Assembly: GCA_001780725.1 (NCBI GenBank)
Contig: MFIM01000028.1
Location: 10,368-74,367 of the forward strand
Reading direction: 5' to 3'
Length of the DNA stretch: 64,000 nucleotides
From: Candidatus Giovannonibacteria bacterium RIFCSPLOWO2_02_FULL_45_28
Lineage (GTDB): Bacteria > Patescibacteriota > Minisyncoccia > UBA11713 > 2-01-FULL-45-33
Part shown: positions 4,841 through 59,598 of the stretch, piece by piece
Numbering within the stretch: position 1 is the stretch's first letter
Layout of the letters: each line of letters begins with the position of its first letter
Position numbers and translations under genes: made by a program
The notes under the pieces: generated by a model
What the model was told of the DNA's origin: nothing
Database searches by the model: none
What the model saw: the letters and a program-made list of their open reading frames with translations, nothing else

Positions 4841-5635
4841 TTATTCACCAGACTCACCTTTTATCAAAAGGTGCTGGGTCAACCCCGACCAGTCCTCTAA
4901 AGAAAGCTCCTCGGGGCGTCTATTGAATCTTGAATCATGAAGCATGAAGCTCGAATCACGCGTTTCATGTTTAATGTTACATGTTACATGTTTTAGGGAG
5001 TGGCGGAGCATTTTGCGCTTTTGCTGGAAGGCGATTTTGGCCAGCGCGAGGATTTGCTCCGACTTAGACGTCGGACGTCTAAGTGAAATTTTAATTATCG
5101 CCGAATCAACTTTTGGCGGAGGTGAAAATTGGCCTTTTGACACTTTGCGGATTATTTCAGGTTTTGCATAAAGTTGGACGGAAAGAGCCAAAAGATTCAT
5201 TTTCGGAGGTTTTGCGCAAATACGTTCCGCAACTTCTTTTTGGACCATCAGAACCATCAGTTTTGACCCAAACTCGGTTTGGGACAAAAATAGGCGTAAA
5301 AAACGGGAGGTGATGTAGTAGGGAAGGTTGGCGACCACTTTAAAATTTCCAATTTTCACTTTCCAATTTTCAATTTTTAAAATATCACCCTGAATTATCT
5401 CAACATTTTTATAATTTCGGAACCGCTCTCGCAAAATGGGAATTAATTCGCGGTCTTTTTCCACGGCAATAACCTTTTTGGCGCGCGCGGCCAAAATTTC
5501 CGTGAGTGATCCCAAACCCGGCCCCACTTCCAAAACAATATCGTTTTTGGAAATCTCCGCGGCGCGCGCCATTTCCTCCAAAATTTTTTTATTATTTAAA
5601 AAATGCTGGCCAAGGTGTTTTTTTCTATTCAACAT
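4841..5635 (-). CDS. rsmA: 16S rRNA (adenine1518/1519-N6) dimethyltransferase
   Basis: HLGQHFL, VLEVGPGLGSLTE and NLPYYI are KsgA/RsmA motifs. Confidence 0.85.
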   Translation of the reverse strand: MLNRKKHLGQHFLNNKKILEEMARAAEISKNDIVLEVGPGLGSLTEILAARAKKVIAVEKDRELIPILRERFRNYKNVEIIQGDILKIENWKVKIGNFKVVANLPYYITSRFLRLFLSQTEFGSKLMVLMVQKEVAERICAKPPKMNLLALSVQLYAKPEIIRKVSKGQFSPPPKVDSAIIKISLRRPTSKSEQILALAKIAFQQKRKMLRHSLKHVTCNIKHETRDSSFMLHDSRFNRRPEELSLEDWSGLTQHLLIKGESGE

Positions 5636-7493
5636 ATATATCTTCTTCTATTTCTTCGGGTTTATTTATATAAACCAGCAAGTGCTCCGGAATTTCAGCC
5701 AAAAACCGGGAAGGCTTGTTTGATGCTCTCTCACCGAAAATAATGCGCTGCGACGCGCAAGTAAGGTAAAGACGGTTTTTCGCGCGAGTCATCGCAACAT
5801 AGCACAGCCTCCTCTCTTCTTCTATATTCGCCGGTTCAAATGATAATATGTGCGGGAAAAGGCCTTCTTCCAAACCGACCACAAACACGGCTTCAAATTC
5901 CAAACCTTTCGCCGCGTGCATGGTCATTAAGTTGACTCTGCCGGTTTGGGAATCGTATCTATCATCAATCGCAAAAAGAGAAACGTGTTCTAAAAATTTA
6001 TCAACATCTTCCATTTGTTGCGCGAGGCCCAGCAATTCTTCTATGTTTTGCCACCTTTCCACTCCTTTTTCTGTGCCATCGTTAACATATTCGCGGTAGC
6101 CGATTTTGTGAATTATTTTTTTTAAAAATTCGTGCGGTTTCGTTCCGGCGCTCTCCGCGCGCAAACTTTCTATTAATTCGTCAAAATTTATCTTTTTTTT
6201 CTTGCGCGGAGGGACATTGGCGATTCTTTTATAGCTTATTTCATCGGCCGGATTTTGGATAAGCCGCAGATAAGCGACTAAATCTTTTATTTCTCGCCTT
6301 TCGTAAAAACGCACGCCGCCGATTATTTTATAAGGAATATTGCTGGCCAGAAAAACTTCTTCCAGCGCCCGCGATTGCGCGTTGGTCCGATAAAGAATAG
6401 CTATTTCCCCGGAGGGGATTTTGTCTTTCTGCATGGACGAAATTTCCGATGCCACCAGCTCTGCCTCGCGTTTTCCATTTTCCGCGAAAATCACGCGGAT
6501 TTGGCGCGAGCCCTGCCGCTTGGTCCAAAGATTTTTTGGCAGCCGCATTTTATTACGGACAATAACGGCGTTGGCCGCTTCCAAAATTATGTCCGTTGAA
6601 CGGTAATTTTCTTCCAAAGTAATTATTTTGGTTTCGGGATAATCTTTTTGGAAATTAAGGATATTTCTGAAATCCGCCCCGCGCCATGAATATATTGCCT
6701 GATCAACGTCGCCCACAACCAAAATGTTGCGGTGCCCGCCAGCCAAAAGCTTGGAGAGAACATATTGGACTTCGTTCGTGTCCTGATACTCGTCAATGTG
6801 TATGTAGCGCCAGCGCTCTTGGTATTTTTTTGATAAATCTGCGTCGCGCATAAGCAGCCGTGTCGGACGGAGCAGTAGATCGTCAAAATCCAGCAGGTTT
6901 TGTTTTTTGGTTTTTTCTTCATAGAGCAGCCAAACTTTTCCCAGCTGTCTTTCAAAAAAACTGCCCGCCTCGCCGTCGGGCGGGTTTTCTACAAATTCTC
7001 CCACCGATATTAGCTGGTTTTTAAGTCGCGAAATTTTATTTTTAATTCTTGAAGGATCAAATTCTTTCGGGTCAATTTTAAGTTCCAGCAAACATTCTTT
7101 TATTAATTTCAGCGAATCATCCTCGTCTAAAATGGTGAAATTTTTTCTAACCCCGATTTTTTCCAAATTCTCCCGTATTATCAAAAGTCCGAGCGCGTGA
7201 AATGTTCCTATGAATGGTTTGGAAATTGGAAATTGTAAATTGGAAATTGCGCGAATTGGCTCAATTCGCGTTCTCATTTCCCCAGCCGCCTTATTGGTGA
7301 AAGTAACGGCTAAAATTTTTTCCGGTCTCGCGCCTTTTGCTATCAGATATTTAATTCGTTCGGTGATAACCTTGGTTTTTCCGGCGCCGGCTCCTGCAAT
7401 CACCAAAACCGGCCCTTCGGTCGCTTCCACCGCCTCTTTTTGTTTGGAATTTAGCTTGTCTGCCGAAGAGGCGGGAGTTTCTTTGTCGGCCAT
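5625..7493 (-). CDS. pcrA: UvrD/PcrA/Rep-family ATP-dependent DNA helicase
   Basis: It carries Walker A AGAGAGKTKV, a TFTNKAA motif, a DEYQDTN (DExx) box, and helicase motifs V-VI (VGDVDQAIYSWRGA, MTMHAAKGLEF). Confidence 0.85.
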   Translation of the reverse strand: MADKETPASSADKLNSKQKEAVEATEGPVLVIAGAGAGKTKVITERIKYLIAKGARPEKILAVTFTNKAAGEMRTRIEPIRAISNLQFPISKPFIGTFHALGLLIIRENLEKIGVRKNFTILDEDDSLKLIKECLLELKIDPKEFDPSRIKNKISRLKNQLISVGEFVENPPDGEAGSFFERQLGKVWLLYEEKTKKQNLLDFDDLLLRPTRLLMRDADLSKKYQERWRYIHIDEYQDTNEVQYVLSKLLAGGHRNILVVGDVDQAIYSWRGADFRNILNFQKDYPETKIITLEENYRSTDIILEAANAVIVRNKMRLPKNLWTKRQGSRQIRVIFAENGKREAELVASEISSMQKDKIPSGEIAILYRTNAQSRALEEVFLASNIPYKIIGGVRFYERREIKDLVAYLRLIQNPADEISYKRIANVPPRKKKKINFDELIESLRAESAGTKPHEFLKKIIHKIGYREYVNDGTEKGVERWQNIEELLGLAQQMEDVDKFLEHVSLFAIDDRYDSQTGRVNLMTMHAAKGLEFEAVFVVGLEEGLFPHILSFEPANIEEERRLCYVAMTRAKNRLYLTCASQRIIFGERASNKPSRFLAEIPEHLLVYINKPEEIEEDIYVE

Positions 7494-26981: not shown

Positions 26982-27001
26982 AGGCCTAAATGTAAGCCCT
27001 C

Positions 27002-28648
27002 GTGGTGAAACGGATATCACGCATGGCTTCGGACCATGTGTTCCCCGTTCAAATCGGGGCGAGGGCGCAAATACAAATGGAAAATATTATGGCCAAAGAA
27101 AATAACGAGAAAAAATTTACTATCCCCAAAGAAGTTCGCGCGGCGGTGGCGATTTTGGAAAGCGCCGGTTTTGAGGCGTATCTTATCGGCGGGTGCGTCC
27201 GGGACCTTTTAATTGAGAGGACGCCTCAAGATTGGGACATAACCACCAATGCTAGGCCGGAGAAAATCCAAGAGCTTTTTCCAAAAAGTTTTTATGAAAA
27301 CAAATTTGGAACGGTAAGCGTGGTTACAGATTCGGAAAATCCGAGGCTCCGCACTATAGAAATCACTCCTTACCGGCTTGAAGGAAAATATTCCGACAAG
27401 CGCCATCCGGATGAAGTGAAATTCGCTGATAAACTAGAAGACGACTTGGCAAGAAGGGATTTTACGATAAACGCAATGGCGATGAAGCTCGCGCTCTCCT
27501 CGAAGTCGCTCGGGAAGAAGTCCGACTTCTTTGGGATCTCGAAGTCGGACTTCGGGGAGAGCGACTTCTTCCCGGGCTCGAGCTTGATCGATCCTTTCAA
27601 CGGCCAAAAAGACTTAGAGCAAAAACTCATTCGCGCCGTCGGCGATCCCAACGAGCGTTTTGAAGAAGACGCGCTCCGGATTATGCGCGCAGTACGGCTG
27701 TCGGCAGAACTAGGATTTACAATTGAGGAAAAAACCCAAAAAGCGTTAAAAGACCGTGCTCATCTGCTCCGTGTTATTGCAAAAGAGAGAATCCGCGACG
27801 AATTTTCCAAAACACTGATGGCCGCCACACCTTCACTAGGACTTGAAACCATGCGGAAGCTGGGTGTTTTAAAACTATTTTTGCCGGAACTGGAAGAGGG
27901 GTGGGGTGTCGGACAAAATAAACACCATGTCTATACCGTCTGGGAGCACAATGTCAGATCTTTGGATTGCGCCGCAAAAGAAAAATGGCCGCTCGTAGTT
28001 CGCCTCGCCGCGCTTTTTCACGATATTGGGAAACCCCGAAGCAAACGCGGCGACGGGCCAGACTCCACTTTTTACGGGCATGAAATAATCGGCGCAAAGA
28101 TGTCCGCGCAAGCTCTTTCACGCCTTCGCTTCTCCGCAGAGTTTACGGAGAAAGCAGCCAAACTGGTCCGCTACCACCTTTTTTATTACAATGTAGATGA
28201 AGTGTCGGAATCTTCCGTGCGCCGTCTTATCTCGCGCGTCGGGCCGGAAGATATGGAAGATTTAATCCGCGTCCGCATCTGCGATCGCATCGGTTCCGGA
28301 GTTCCAAAAGCGGAGCCGTACAAACTCCGCCATTTTAGATTTTTGGTTGAAAAATTGCAAAGAGATCCGGTTTCGGTTAAAATGCTTAAAATAAACGGCG
28401 ATAAAATAAAGGAGCTCACCGGGCTTCCGCAAAGCATAAAAATCGGGTTGATTATTCATGCTTTGATGGACGAAGTTTTGGACGATCCGGAAAAAAATAC
28501 ACCGGAATATTTAGAAAAACGCGCCACGGAACTGAACGCTTTGCCGGATGCAGAGCTCAAAAAACTCGCCGACGCCGGCCGCAGCAAAAAATTAGGCCTT
28601 GAAGAAGAAGAGATTTCAAAAATTAAGAAAAAACACTGGGTAAAATAA
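27002..28648 (+). CDS. cca: CCA-adding tRNA nucleotidyltransferase with an HD domain; carries an in-frame repeat insertion
   Basis: The GGCVRDLL head-domain motif and an HD domain (LFHDIGK). The true start is probably ATG 27088 (MAKENNEKK). Confidence 0.8.
   Translation: MVKRISRMASDHVFPVQIGARAQIQMENIMAKENNEKKFTIPKEVRAAVAILESAGFEAYLIGGCVRDLLIERTPQDWDITTNARPEKIQELFPKSFYENKFGTVSVVTDSENPRLRTIEITPYRLEGKYSDKRHPDEVKFADKLEDDLARRDFTINAMAMKLALSSKSLGKKSDFFGISKSDFGESDFFPGSSLIDPFNGQKDLEQKLIRAVGDPNERFEEDALRIMRAVRLSAELGFTIEEKTQKALKDRAHLLRVIAKERIRDEFSKTLMAATPSLGLETMRKLGVLKLFLPELEEGWGVGQNKHHVYTVWEHNVRSLDCAAKEKWPLVVRLAALFHDIGKPRSKRGDGPDSTFYGHEIIGAKMSAQALSRLRFSAEFTEKAAKLVRYHLFYYNVDEVSESSVRRLISRVGPEDMEDLIRVRICDRIGSGVPKAEPYKLRHFRFLVEKLQRDPVSVKMLKINGDKIKELTGLPQSIKIGLIIHALMDEVLDDPEKNTPEYLEKRATELNALPDAELKKLADAGRSKKLGLEEEEISKIKKKHWVK
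27497..27592. repeat. Palindromic repeat element inserted in frame in cca
   Basis: Nested inverted repeats (GAAGTCCGACTTC / GAAGTCGGACTTC; CGGGAAGAAGTC / GACTTCTTCCCG). The 13-mer GACTTCTTCCCGG is shared with the RluA gene. Confidence 0.5.
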
Positions 28649-44534: not shown

Positions 44535-45239
44535 ATGAAAGCTGTGGAAACACAAAATATTGTTTACGAAGACGAAAACCTGATCGCGCTCAATAAACCG
44601 CCGGGCGTAAATTTTGATTGGGTTTTGGAAACAAGAAAAGATCTTATTTCTGTCCACCGTTTGGACAAAGACACCTCCGGCATTATTTTATTCGCCAAAA
44701 ATCAAAGCGCCGCCGATTACTTAAAATCGCTTTTCCAAAATCACAAAATCCGAAAAACGTATCTAGCGCTGGTTGTCGGCAATGTGAAAAATAATCGCGG
44801 AGTTATTGATTTGCCGATAGGCCGCAGCAAAAAAACTCCGTTAAAAAGAGTCGCCGTCGGCGAGCGGCGCGGGAAAATGCGGGAGGCGGTTACGGAATTT
44901 AAAGTTTTAAAAAGATTTCCGCCAGCCCCCTCAAAGTCCGACTTTGAATCTGCAAAAAAGTCAGACTTCTTCCCGGCCGGAGGATTTACTTTAATAGAAG
45001 TTTATCCTGAAACTGGCCGCACTCATCAAATCCGCTCTCATTTTGCAGCGATTGGCCATCCGGTGGCATGCGATAAGCTCTATGGTGGAAAAAATCCCAA
45101 GTGCCCAGCAGAGCTCACGCGCCAATTTTTACATGCCTCGGTAGTTGATTTTACGCTTCCGTCAGGCGGCCGATTAAGGATAGAAGCCGACTTGCCGGAG
45201 GATTTAGAAAATGCTAAAGTCCTCCTATGCCGTCATTAA
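44535..45239 (+). CDS. RluA-family pseudouridine synthase with an in-frame repeat insertion
   Basis: HRLDKDTSG (the catalytic Asp motif) and [11 protein letters not shown]. The ORF-track start at 44385 overlaps the HAD gene; ATG 44535 is more likely. Confidence 0.8.
44941..44990. repeat. Palindromic repeat element inserted in frame in the RluA gene
   Basis: TCAAAGTCCGACTTTGA is a perfect 17 nt palindrome. AAAAGTCAGACTTCTTCCCGG shares the 13-mer GACTTCTTCCCGG with the cca insertion. Confidence 0.5.
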
Positions 45240-58725: not shown

Positions 58726-59598
58726 TCAAATATTTTTTACGTATTCATTTCCGATCTTTTTAATAATACCACGGATTTCTAGAAGGCCGATAACTGATTG
58801 AGCGGTTTGGGTTGGTATTTTGCTTTTTCTAATGAGCGAATCAACGTCCATCGGTTCAACAAGCGCTTCTAAAATTTGTTTTTCTTCCGGAGATAAATCA
58901 AGGGTGTCGGATACCCCACTTGGGTGTCCGACACCCAAGTGGATTCCGTAAGCACGCAAAACATCCTCCGCAGATTCCACAAGCGCCGCGCCTTGTTTAA
59001 TGAGTCTGTTTGTGCCTGCAGAGTTTTGAGAAAACGCCGAGCCAGGAATGGCAAGGACGTCGCGGTTTTGATCAAGCGCGAATTTCGCAGTAATCAAGGC
59101 GCCACTTTTCTCCGGCGCTTCCACGACAAGTGTGGCTTGGGAAAGGCCGGAGATGATGCGGTTTCTTTGCGGAAAACTCCAAAGCGTCGCTTTCATGTTG
59201 TGATCGTACTCGGAAATTATGGCGCCGCCGGCTTCCGTAACGCGCTCGGCAAGCGCCCAGTTTTTCGGCGGATAAAACGCTTCACGCGCAAGGCCTGATC
59301 CCAAAACCGCGATTGTCGGCATTTTGTTTTCCAAACTAGCCTTAGCGACAACAGTGTCAATTCCTGTTGCCATGCCGCTAACAGTCGCAAAGCCGTAAGG
59401 CGCGAGACCCGCTATAATTTTTCTTAAAATCTCCTCTCCGTAAGCGGAATTTCTGCGCGTTCCTACTATTGATAGATAATACTTAGCTTTCGGCCAATCC
59501 CCCCACACAGACAGCTTTTTTGGTGGAAACGGGATTTCCCGCAAGATCTCCGGAAAGTCTTTGTCTTTGAGTTTTATTTCGCGGATATTCTGGGTCAT
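58726..59598 (-). CDS. dprA: DNA processing protein DprA
   Basis: SIVGTRRNSAYGEEI...SGMATGID is the DprA Rossmann motif. ATG 59598 is chosen because the longer ORF-track N-terminus covers a strong opposite-strand promoter and low-complexity sequence. Confidence 0.7.
   Translation of the reverse strand: MTQNIREIKLKDKDFPEILREIPFPPKKLSVWGDWPKAKYYLSIVGTRRNSAYGEEILRKIIAGLAPYGFATVSGMATGIDTVVAKASLENKMPTIAVLGSGLAREAFYPPKNWALAERVTEAGGAIISEYDHNMKATLWSFPQRNRIISGLSQATLVVEAPEKSGALITAKFALDQNRDVLAIPGSAFSQNSAGTNRLIKQGAALVESAEDVLRAYGIHLGVGHPSGVSDTLDLSPEEKQILEALVEPMDVDSLIRKSKIPTQTAQSVIGLLEIRGIIKKIGNEYVKNI

Follow-up and report, generated by a model that had tools for sequence, protein, structure and literature searches.

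Here, we report that two segments in a 64,000-nucleotide stretch of the genome of the ultra-small Candidatus Giovannonibacteria bacterium RIFCSPLOWO2_02_FULL_45_28 (contig MFIM01000028.1, positions 10,368 to 74,367; the whole stretch is hereafter called the window) belong to a single dispersed family of short DNA repeats with nested palindromes, which resides in chromosomes of Patescibacteria, or Candidate Phyla Radiation (CPR) bacteria. One segment lies in the gene for a CCA-adding enzyme and the other in the gene for an RluA-family pseudouridine synthase. Copies of this family sit in essential genes, always in frame and without stop codons, and translation turns them into an additional loop, probably disordered, where the protein chain makes a tight turn between beta-strands. 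Both segments had been noticed in a first-pass annotation of the window, which proposed a new family of in-frame palindromic insertions resembling the Rickettsia palindromic elements (RPEs). Its statements on inverted pairs, repeated motifs, a 17-nt palindrome and a common 13-mer were all correct for 27497-27592 and 44921-44990, each extra peptide is in frame with the open reading frame (ORF) of its host, CCA or RluA, and further copies are present in unrelated genes and in other genomes.

Two related palindromic elements in the window

The two host genes and their elements are listed below in window coordinates. We distinguish a short form of the repeat (E1) and a long form (E2).

27089-28648, plus strand: class II CCA-adding enzyme gene (PolyA_pol head, RNA-binding domain, HD domain), from the ORF, the domains of homologues and matches to PDB entries 6ibp and 1miv
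27480-27590, no strand: whole nested hairpin of the CCA gene, 50-nt arms that are 74% complementary, outermost stem GATGAAGCTCG / CGAGCTTGATC
27492-27577, no strand: long composite element E2, 86 nt, CTCTCCTCGAAGTCGC ... GCGACTTCTTCCCGGGC, from a full-length alignment with a Mur ligase element (L113)
27508-27562, minus strand: inner short element E1, in the opposite orientation to the RluA copy; once reverse-complemented, it aligns with E1 of RluA, UvrA, methionine aminopeptidase (MetAP) and orthologous CCA genes
27518-27528, no strand: 11-nt palindrome AAGTCCGACTT, read K-S-D-F, from motif search
27542-27552, no strand: 11-nt palindrome AAGTCGGACTT, whose centre is complementary to the central base of the copy at 27518-27528
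44535-45239, plus strand: RluA-family pseudouridine synthase gene (PF00849), from the ORF and homologues; start approximate
44922-44980, plus strand: short element E1, 59 nt, CCAGCCCCCTCAAAGTCCGACTTTGAATCTGCAAAAAAGTCAGACTTCTTCCCGGCCGG, encoding 21 residues, from alignment within the window; without counterpart in 97 of 120 orthologues
44934-44944, no strand: 11-nt palindrome AAGTCCGACTT, inside a 17-nt perfect palindrome, from motif search
44958-44968, no strand: 11-nt palindrome AAGTCAGACTT, from motif search

The core of both segments is an 11-nt odd palindrome, AAGTCNGACTT, present in two copies per gene that are exactly 13 nt apart. Its four occurrences in the window compare with 0.04 expected, and none of 100 shuffled sequences reached four. 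Since AAGTCNGACTT is its own reverse complement, K-S-D-F is read in either orientation. The longest inverted repeat of the entire window pairs positions 27511-27557 with 44929-44975 (47 nt, 79% complementary), so that the best inverted repeat joins the CCA and RluA genes and indicates two related, oppositely oriented copies. In addition, the 13-mer GACTTCTTCCCGG is the same at 27563 in the CCA gene and at 44964 in the RluA gene, and the RluA copy contains the perfect 17-nt palindrome TCAAAGTCCGACTTTGA at 44931-44947.

The CCA segment is built of several layers. A perfect 13-bp stem with an 11-nt loop is formed by GAAGTCCGACTTC (27517-27529) and its reverse complement GAAGTCGGACTTC (27541-27553). 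Further arms pair 27492-27507 with 27548-27563 and 27508-27522 with 27563-27577; CGGGAAGAAGTC and GACTTCTTCCCG sit inside the latter two arms, and CTCGAAGTCG is present twice in the segment. The outer stem of E2, GAAGTCGC / GCGACTTC, surrounds the reverse-oriented E1, and the outermost stem of the whole hairpin extends into the host codons for MKL and SLID. With this stem the hairpin measures 110 nt and reaches slightly beyond the 27497-27592 segment that had first been delimited; the encoded peptide includes KKSDFFGISKSDF. A check of secondary structure gave -35 kcal/mol for the CCA segment as single-stranded DNA (z = -5.7 for the plus strand and -6.0 for the minus strand), and weaker folding for the RluA segment (z = -1.8 for the coding strand and -3.05 for the other).

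The homologues of the CCA protein carry PF01743, PF12627 and PF01966 and are named Candidatus Giovannonibacteria, as are the best-named homologues of the RluA protein (Candidatus Giovannonibacteria, Parcubacteria, CPR). The mechanical ORF of the CCA gene begins at 27002, within a tRNA-Arg(TCG) that occupies 26996-27068 and adjoins the gene on its 5' side; because of this tRNA, the real start should be the ATG near 27089. An identical CCA protein was found in independent JGI and ENA assemblies, which rules out an assembly artefact as the source of the segment. A search of the whole window against all Rfam families returned six tRNAs only and matched neither segment, and no third copy was found in the 10 kb on either side of the window.

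A dispersed family in Patescibacteria

The short form, E1, measures about 50-60 nt and consists of two odd palindromes on AAGTC-N-GACTT, 13 nt apart, within a GC-rich outer stem; its consensus in related genomes is CCCTCCTCGAAGTCCGACTTCGAGATCCCAAAGAAGTCGGACTTCTTCCCGG. In these genomes it resides in the genes for UvrA (L060), MetAP (L061) and PNPase (L120) and in orthologous CCA genes, and the XerC/D gene (L128) carries an E1 subfamily specific to its genome. E2, the long form, measures about 86-95 nt and consists of a reversed E1 in an additional stem. Its hosts are the CCA gene of the window and a Mur ligase gene of Giovannonibacteria MFHO01 (L113), and the two copies align over their whole length with two 3-nt and two 1-nt indels only (local score 57, compared with 8.8 +/- 1.8 for shuffled sequences). 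Like the window, MFHO01 carries both forms, E1 in MetAP and E2 in the Mur ligase. The genome JBBUBU01 has at least five copies with an identical 13-nt spacer, and a sixth (L093) with a 15-nt spacer variant.

Scanning one genome per species for the double 11-mer yielded at least 117 loci. About 67 of those listed bear CPR names, including Saccharibacteria, Kaiser-, Vogel-, Nomura-, Sung- and Giovannonibacteria and Paceibacterota. Also among the matches listed, several genomes have three to six matches, and many matches from other phyla are direct tandem repeats that seem to be unrelated. The 11-mer is always paired, with no single occurrence in about 1 Mb of CPR DNA, and the spacing between the paired 11-mers in CPR copies is spread evenly from 10 to 16 nt. 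The double 11-mer had no match in 2.9 million viral contigs and thus gave no sign of a phage vector. No transposase was seen among the annotated genes within 10 kb of five loci, and no target-site duplication was found in 67 copies (47 had no direct repeat at their flanks, 15 had one of 1 nt and five had one of at least 2 nt).

Insertions relative to orthologues and fit to the protein fold

The first-pass annotation had interpreted the extra peptides as insertions, and comparison with orthologues bore this out. In a set of 120 CCA orthologues, the motifs RDFTINA and DPFGG are separated by 9-10 residues in minimal forms and by 38 in the window protein, and the solved CCA enzyme 6ibp has three residues opposite 31 of the window protein. 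At the RluA site, the same 97 of the 120 orthologues have a one-residue turn, KRF-N-GFTL, and the KSDF insert occurs in the window protein and one relative only. In PNPase of JBBUBU01, an insert of 17 residues is missing from 119 of 120 orthologues. The in-frame peptide of the CCA protein is kept in its closest relatives (P0002 and P0004). The frame is preserved in all 73 loci that cover the CCA site (of 80 CCA loci), without a broken frame or a stop, so that translational bypass or splicing of the insert need not be invoked.

The sites in both proteins are tight turns between beta-strands. In the AlphaFold model of the CCA enzyme (mean predicted local distance difference test score, pLDDT, 86.8), residues 138-160 have pLDDT <50 and lie between the strands 131-133 and 165-167, with confident prediction elsewhere in the protein. 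The insert is thus predicted to be a low-confidence surface loop joining two beta-strands, at a site compatible with the fold. In other lineages the same CCA and RluA turns hold different inserts, which are either strong hairpins (z of -4 to -8) or AT-rich tandem repeats.

The CCA turn of P0010, P0016, P0026, L191 and L120/L121 is occupied by other widespread repeat peptides, namely PLNPP..KGG..LYKEGLGEV, CHPERSEGSRD and RASEPPKRGLSASETE. Where the DNA was read, these repeats are also strong hairpins (e.g. L191, z = -5.9).

Conservation at the DNA level and remodelling of copies

Depending on the host, the core is read as KSDF, EVRL/EVGL or GSPTS/RSRTS, that is, in all three frames, within ORFs of hundreds of residues. 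At the CCA site, E1 stands forward in L119 and reversed in L200 inside the same outer stem. The use of one core in three reading frames and both orientations implies that conservation acts on the DNA and not on the peptide. Moreover, the central bases of the paired 11-mers are complementary in 39 of 51 CPR copies, so the pair makes the two arms of one hairpin.

Changes in the core are matched across the arms. Three orthologous CCA inserts share flanks and spacer and differ in their core, which is AAGTC-N-GACTT in L119, AACGTC/AACATC-N-GATGTT in L198 and AAACC-N-GGTTT in L199; the change is identical in both palindromes and compensated on both arms. In an alignment of nine copies, 94.9% of the cells are paired if the structure is taken as two small palindromes and 95.7% if it is taken as one long hairpin, with changes on both sides at 14 and 13 pairs, respectively. 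None of 500 shuffles reached these values, and structures slid by 1-3 columns paired 30-49%. Covariation over the nine copies thus points to concerted evolution of all four arms, and the counts do not discriminate between the two structures, which have equally good fits.

The CCA outer stem AAGCTCGCRCC / GGYGCGAGCTT is common to the window copy and its orthologues L118, L119, L198, L199 and L200. What lies at the apex differs between them: E1 in forward or in reversed orientation, E2, three layers in L199, or no more than a short remnant in L118. E2 itself is an E1 inside an E1-like hairpin. An RluA orthologue that lacks E1 (L201) has a plain small hairpin at the same turn, with a similar left outer arm (CCGCCTGCC vs CCGCCAGCC). 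The JBBUBU01 copies have self-complementary flanks that vary from copy to copy though their 35-nt core is nearly identical. In the PNPase copy of this genome (L003 / P0241), the insert replaced the conserved EIGK in addition to the 17 added residues, and because EIGK was overwritten, the inserted unit seems to include copy-specific arms. An inverted duplication of the target, in which one arm would be host sequence and the other its inverted copy, was also considered and is unsupported, as neither PNPase arm matches EIGK.

Origin and maintenance of the elements

It seems probable, to a fair degree, that the family is a selfish or neutral palindromic repeat that is tolerated in protein turns and kept palindromic by template switching during replication. 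CPR genomes have nearly no non-coding space, and the surviving copies would be those that landed in frame in tolerant turns. Such survival would also explain why the same turns are repeatedly occupied by different repeat families. The elements would then be useless to the host protein. Template switching of the replicating polymerase between the arms of an inverted repeat homogenises the arms and inverts the spacer (PMC8604942; PMC7202029). Acting on these repeats, it would maintain and remodel the palindromes, and would account for the compensatory changes in four arms and for the opposite orientations at one site in sister lineages. The pattern of palindrome upkeep is observed, and template switching is the mechanism that we infer from it. 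New copies would be generated when an element is copied into the apex of a hairpin that is already present, which would give nested layers, copy-specific flanks and no target-site duplication; we consider this the weakest step of the explanation.

Template switching also enters an alternative in which the palindromes are immobile. Each would have grown in place (by quasipalindrome perfection and inverted duplication) at a mutable and tolerant loop, and the likeness between genes would be convergence on a favoured seed. The concerted compensatory changes of the arms and the in-place inversion at the CCA site are consistent with such growth, as are the lack of a target-site duplication and the many unrelated hairpins held by the same turns in other lineages. 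So is a bias among long palindromes: in the window and L118-L201 (about 1 Mb of CPR DNA), 12 of 71 perfect odd palindromes with arms of at least 8 nt are centred on GTC-N-GAC against about one expected, including sequences unrelated to the KSDF element (L124, L148, L169 and L177), and within the window five of seven odd palindromes with arms of at least 7 nt have this centre. On the other hand, convergence cannot yield matches of 47-86 nt in unrelated genes that include the non-palindromic spacer and asymmetric ends, as seen between the CCA and RluA copies of the window, between the CCA copy and the Mur ligase copy L113, and among the five JBBUBU01 copies with one 13-nt spacer. The 11-mer is never single in about 1 Mb, hence no seeds are visible. 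On balance, growth in place is unlikely. An ordinary non-autonomous transposon, either a repetitive extragenic palindromic (REP) sequence or bacterial interspersed mosaic element (BIME) moved by a REP-associated tyrosine transposase (RAYT), or a miniature inverted-repeat transposable element (MITE) derived from an insertion sequence elsewhere in the genome, would agree with the several copies per genome. It would also agree with the dimer-of-palindromes build, as in REP dimers inside uvrA, uvrB and other genes that encode 20-30 residues, and with the beginning of the Giovannonibacteria copies, CCTC, a variant of the CGTC tag (PMC3733652). However, the GTAG/CGTC tag is not conserved over the CPR copies, the palindromes have a one-base centre and not a 4-5-nt loop, and the missing target-site duplications, the lack of an annotated transposase near the five loci and the absence from viral contigs all speak against mobility of this kind, which we regard as distinctly unlikely.

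Two further alternatives assign a function to the repeat. The cell might keep it as a nucleic-acid signal, for instance as a pair of sites to which a dimeric DNA-binding protein attaches, or as a hairpin in the mRNA that slows translation at a domain boundary. The conservation of the 11-mer, always paired, in distant CPR classes (Saccharibacteria, Kaiser-, Vogel-, Nomura- and Giovannonibacteria), the preservation of pairing through compensatory change and the location of the CCA element between head strands would all suit such a role. However, presence and absence differ among close orthologues, either orientation occurs at one site, the distance between the two sites varies evenly over 10-16 nt, the repeat sits at unrelated positions in unrelated genes, copies with an altered core persist and no Rfam family matches. 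A conserved signal is thus very unlikely in our judgement. Alternatively, the KSDF-repeat peptide could have been selected as a linker or interaction motif with DNA palindromy as a by-product, given that it is in frame and kept in P0002 and P0004. This is contradicted by the frame data, since other hosts translate this DNA in three frames and in either orientation; the peptide also has pLDDT <50 and is missing from most orthologues, and we see hardly any chance that this explanation holds.

Several observations also weigh against a selfish or neutral repeat that spreads by copying. No donor, transposase or nuclease was identified, and the copying is deduced only from the similarity of copies. 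Only two loci were found in about 84 kb of this genome, in which the family is thus not abundant, and the RluA copy folds weakly on its coding strand. The nine-copy alignment is small and hand-picked, and its members are related, so that the covariation may partly reflect shared ancestry. The conservation of the 11-mer over CPR classes could mean recognition by a protein, i.e. a function. Shared outer stems with different apexes fit apex deletion or replacement equally well. Finally, neither arm of the PNPase hairpin matches the EIGK of the 119 orthologues; core and arms seem to come in together, an arrival that simple insertion into an apex leaves unexplained, and no model considered here accounts for a constant core that gains different self-complementary arms.

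According to a recent survey (PMC13155455, 2026), which gave no cause, inverted repeats reach their highest densities of any phylum in Candidatus Campbelliibacteriota and Kaiseribacteria. We tentatively propose, as a possibility that we would not yet call probable, that CPR bacteria propagate small hairpin modules into hairpin apices without a transposase signature or target-site duplication and thereby build nested palindromes in essential genes, whose arms then evolve concertedly by template switching, and that this process causes the high density of inverted repeats in CPR genomes. The repeat family described here is a concrete candidate for that cause. If true, apex copying would be a steady supply of new protein loops in reduced CPR genomes.

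In-frame palindromic insertions in essential genes have so far counted as a peculiarity of Rickettsia and of a few bacteria rich in REPs. A family with so wide a range in Patescibacteria suggests a general tendency of small, gene-dense genomes to drive selfish hairpins into the loops of proteins. In annotation, low-complexity extra peptides in CPR proteins should not be taken as functional motifs. The orthologous CCA site, which holds forward, reverse, nested, core-swapped and deleted versions, offers a natural series for studying the upkeep and remodelling of palindromes.

Other palindromes and repeats in the window

Additional palindromes were observed in other genes of the window. The KsgA/RsmA-like gene (4841-5635, minus strand) has a perfect 23-nt odd palindrome, ACTTAGACGTCgGACGTCTAAGT, at 5062-5084, which encodes SLRRPTSKS in frame (DNA z = -4.7); related peptides (GRPTS..TSDVQ) occupy the turn of the RluA protein in other Giovannonibacteria. 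Towards its 3' end (about 4936-4976), this gene also contains an imperfect hairpin rich in CATGAAGC/CATGTT that encodes ...NIKHETRDSSFMLHDS... (z = -1.5), and peptides similar to its product ('KHETR/HDSGF') occur in the CCA loop of P0038, P0067 and L142. The DprA gene (minus strand) carries nested palindromes, GGGTGTCGGAtaccCCACTTGGGTGTCcGACACCCAAGTGG, at 58902-58942, encoding GIHLGVGHPSGVSDT in frame (z = -5.4). A TWVSDTQV peptide at the RluA turn of other genomes could derive from a palindrome of this DprA type.

In the KsgA gene (5344-5373) and in a UvrD/PcrA-like helicase gene (7219-7248), in-frame tandem repeats that are rich in AT and of the TTGGAAAT type encode KIENWKVKIGNFKV and ISNLQFPISK. 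The two repeats show 90% complementarity and are not hairpins. The same kind of repeat is present in the CCA loop of other CPR genomes (L143, L144 and L179; KIENSLKIEN...), and it looks like a second, non-palindromic class of in-frame insert.

We also considered a restriction site as the basis of the TCNGA centre, which equals the site of Hpy188I. This idea was rejected: TCNGA occurs 255 times in the window against 227-293 expected and is neither avoided nor enriched. Over the whole window, CTNAG (49 vs 92-142 expected) and GGNCC (96 vs 130-196 expected) are both clearly under-represented, the pattern expected of restriction avoidance.

Comparison with known systems

The family behaves like RPEs and is not a member of the RPE, REP or MITE families. 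RPEs, as they are summarised from Ogata et al. (2000) in PMC10969869 and PMC6649704, are in-frame palindromic repeats in Rickettsia genes. The CPR family shares with them repeated palindromic DNA that is in frame in unrelated housekeeping genes and missing from orthologues (in CCA, RluA and PNPase, with UvrA, MetAP, Mur ligase and XerC/D as further hosts), a stable hairpin, a surface turn compatible with the fold, the lack of a transposase of its own, and a small-genome, host-dependent bacterial host. Thus, the comparison drawn in the first-pass annotation holds for behaviour and not for sequence, size or host. By their description, RPEs are set apart by a length of about 150 bp (PMC10969869), compared with about 50-95 nt here, and by hosts among Alphaproteobacteria and not Patescibacteria. 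The CPR element consists of two odd palindromes with one core, often nested, and its arms stay complementary through compensatory change, whereas the Rickettsia elements lose repeat identity over time (PMC6649704).

No less close a precedent is given by the intragenic REP dimers of other phyla. Dimers of the GTAG and CGTC super-families have been described in uvrA, uvrB and other genes, where they encode 20-30 residues, and no transposase is dedicated to the CGTC family (Di Nocera et al., 2013; PMC3733652). Both systems pair small palindromic units in inverted orientation inside DNA-repair and other genes, including uvrA, and the CPR units resemble inverted dimers in that the 11-mer occurs only in pairs with mostly complementary centres. 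Unlike REPs, the 67 CPR copies lack the GTAG/CGTC end tag, with only the Giovannonibacteria subfamily beginning with CCTC, and they have a one-base centre with arms of 5-9 nt instead of an 8-9-bp stem with a 4-5-nt loop. CPR copies are mostly intragenic and not extragenic, and CPR bacteria are not among the phyla listed for CGTC repeats (PMC3733652). MITEs differ by their target-site duplication, which is lacking in the 67 CPR copies. The CPR element is a palindrome throughout, and no parent insertion sequence was found, although no search aimed at one was made. A DNA uptake sequence (DUS/USS) was rejected as well: such sequences occur about once per kb and are mostly single, compared with two loci in about 84 kb and no single 11-mer in about 1 Mb of CPR DNA. 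As to the proposed novelty of the family, the full-text literature open to searching yielded no account of such a family in CPR bacteria, whether under that name or under Patescibacteria, Parcubacteria or Saccharibacteria, in combination with palindromes, hairpins or in-frame insertions. RPEs and intragenic REP dimers are known precedents of such insertions.

Coding palindromes in Nematomorpha mitochondria, for which template switching or repeat conversion and a parasitic character were proposed (Mikhailov et al., 2019; PMC6649704), likewise place inverted repeats in translated genes, with arms that seem to be actively kept identical. They encode conserved protein regions and have arms of up to 284 bp, whereas the CPR hairpins are extra loops and form a dispersed family with shared sequence. 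Quasipalindrome template-switch mutagenesis (PMC8604942; PMC7202029) predicts the arm homogenisation and spacer inversion seen in CPR copies; it is a mutational process and not an element, and it does not explain matching copies in unrelated genes. Three traits of the CPR family are unusual, namely its odd palindromes with one core, their nesting and the concerted change of four arms.

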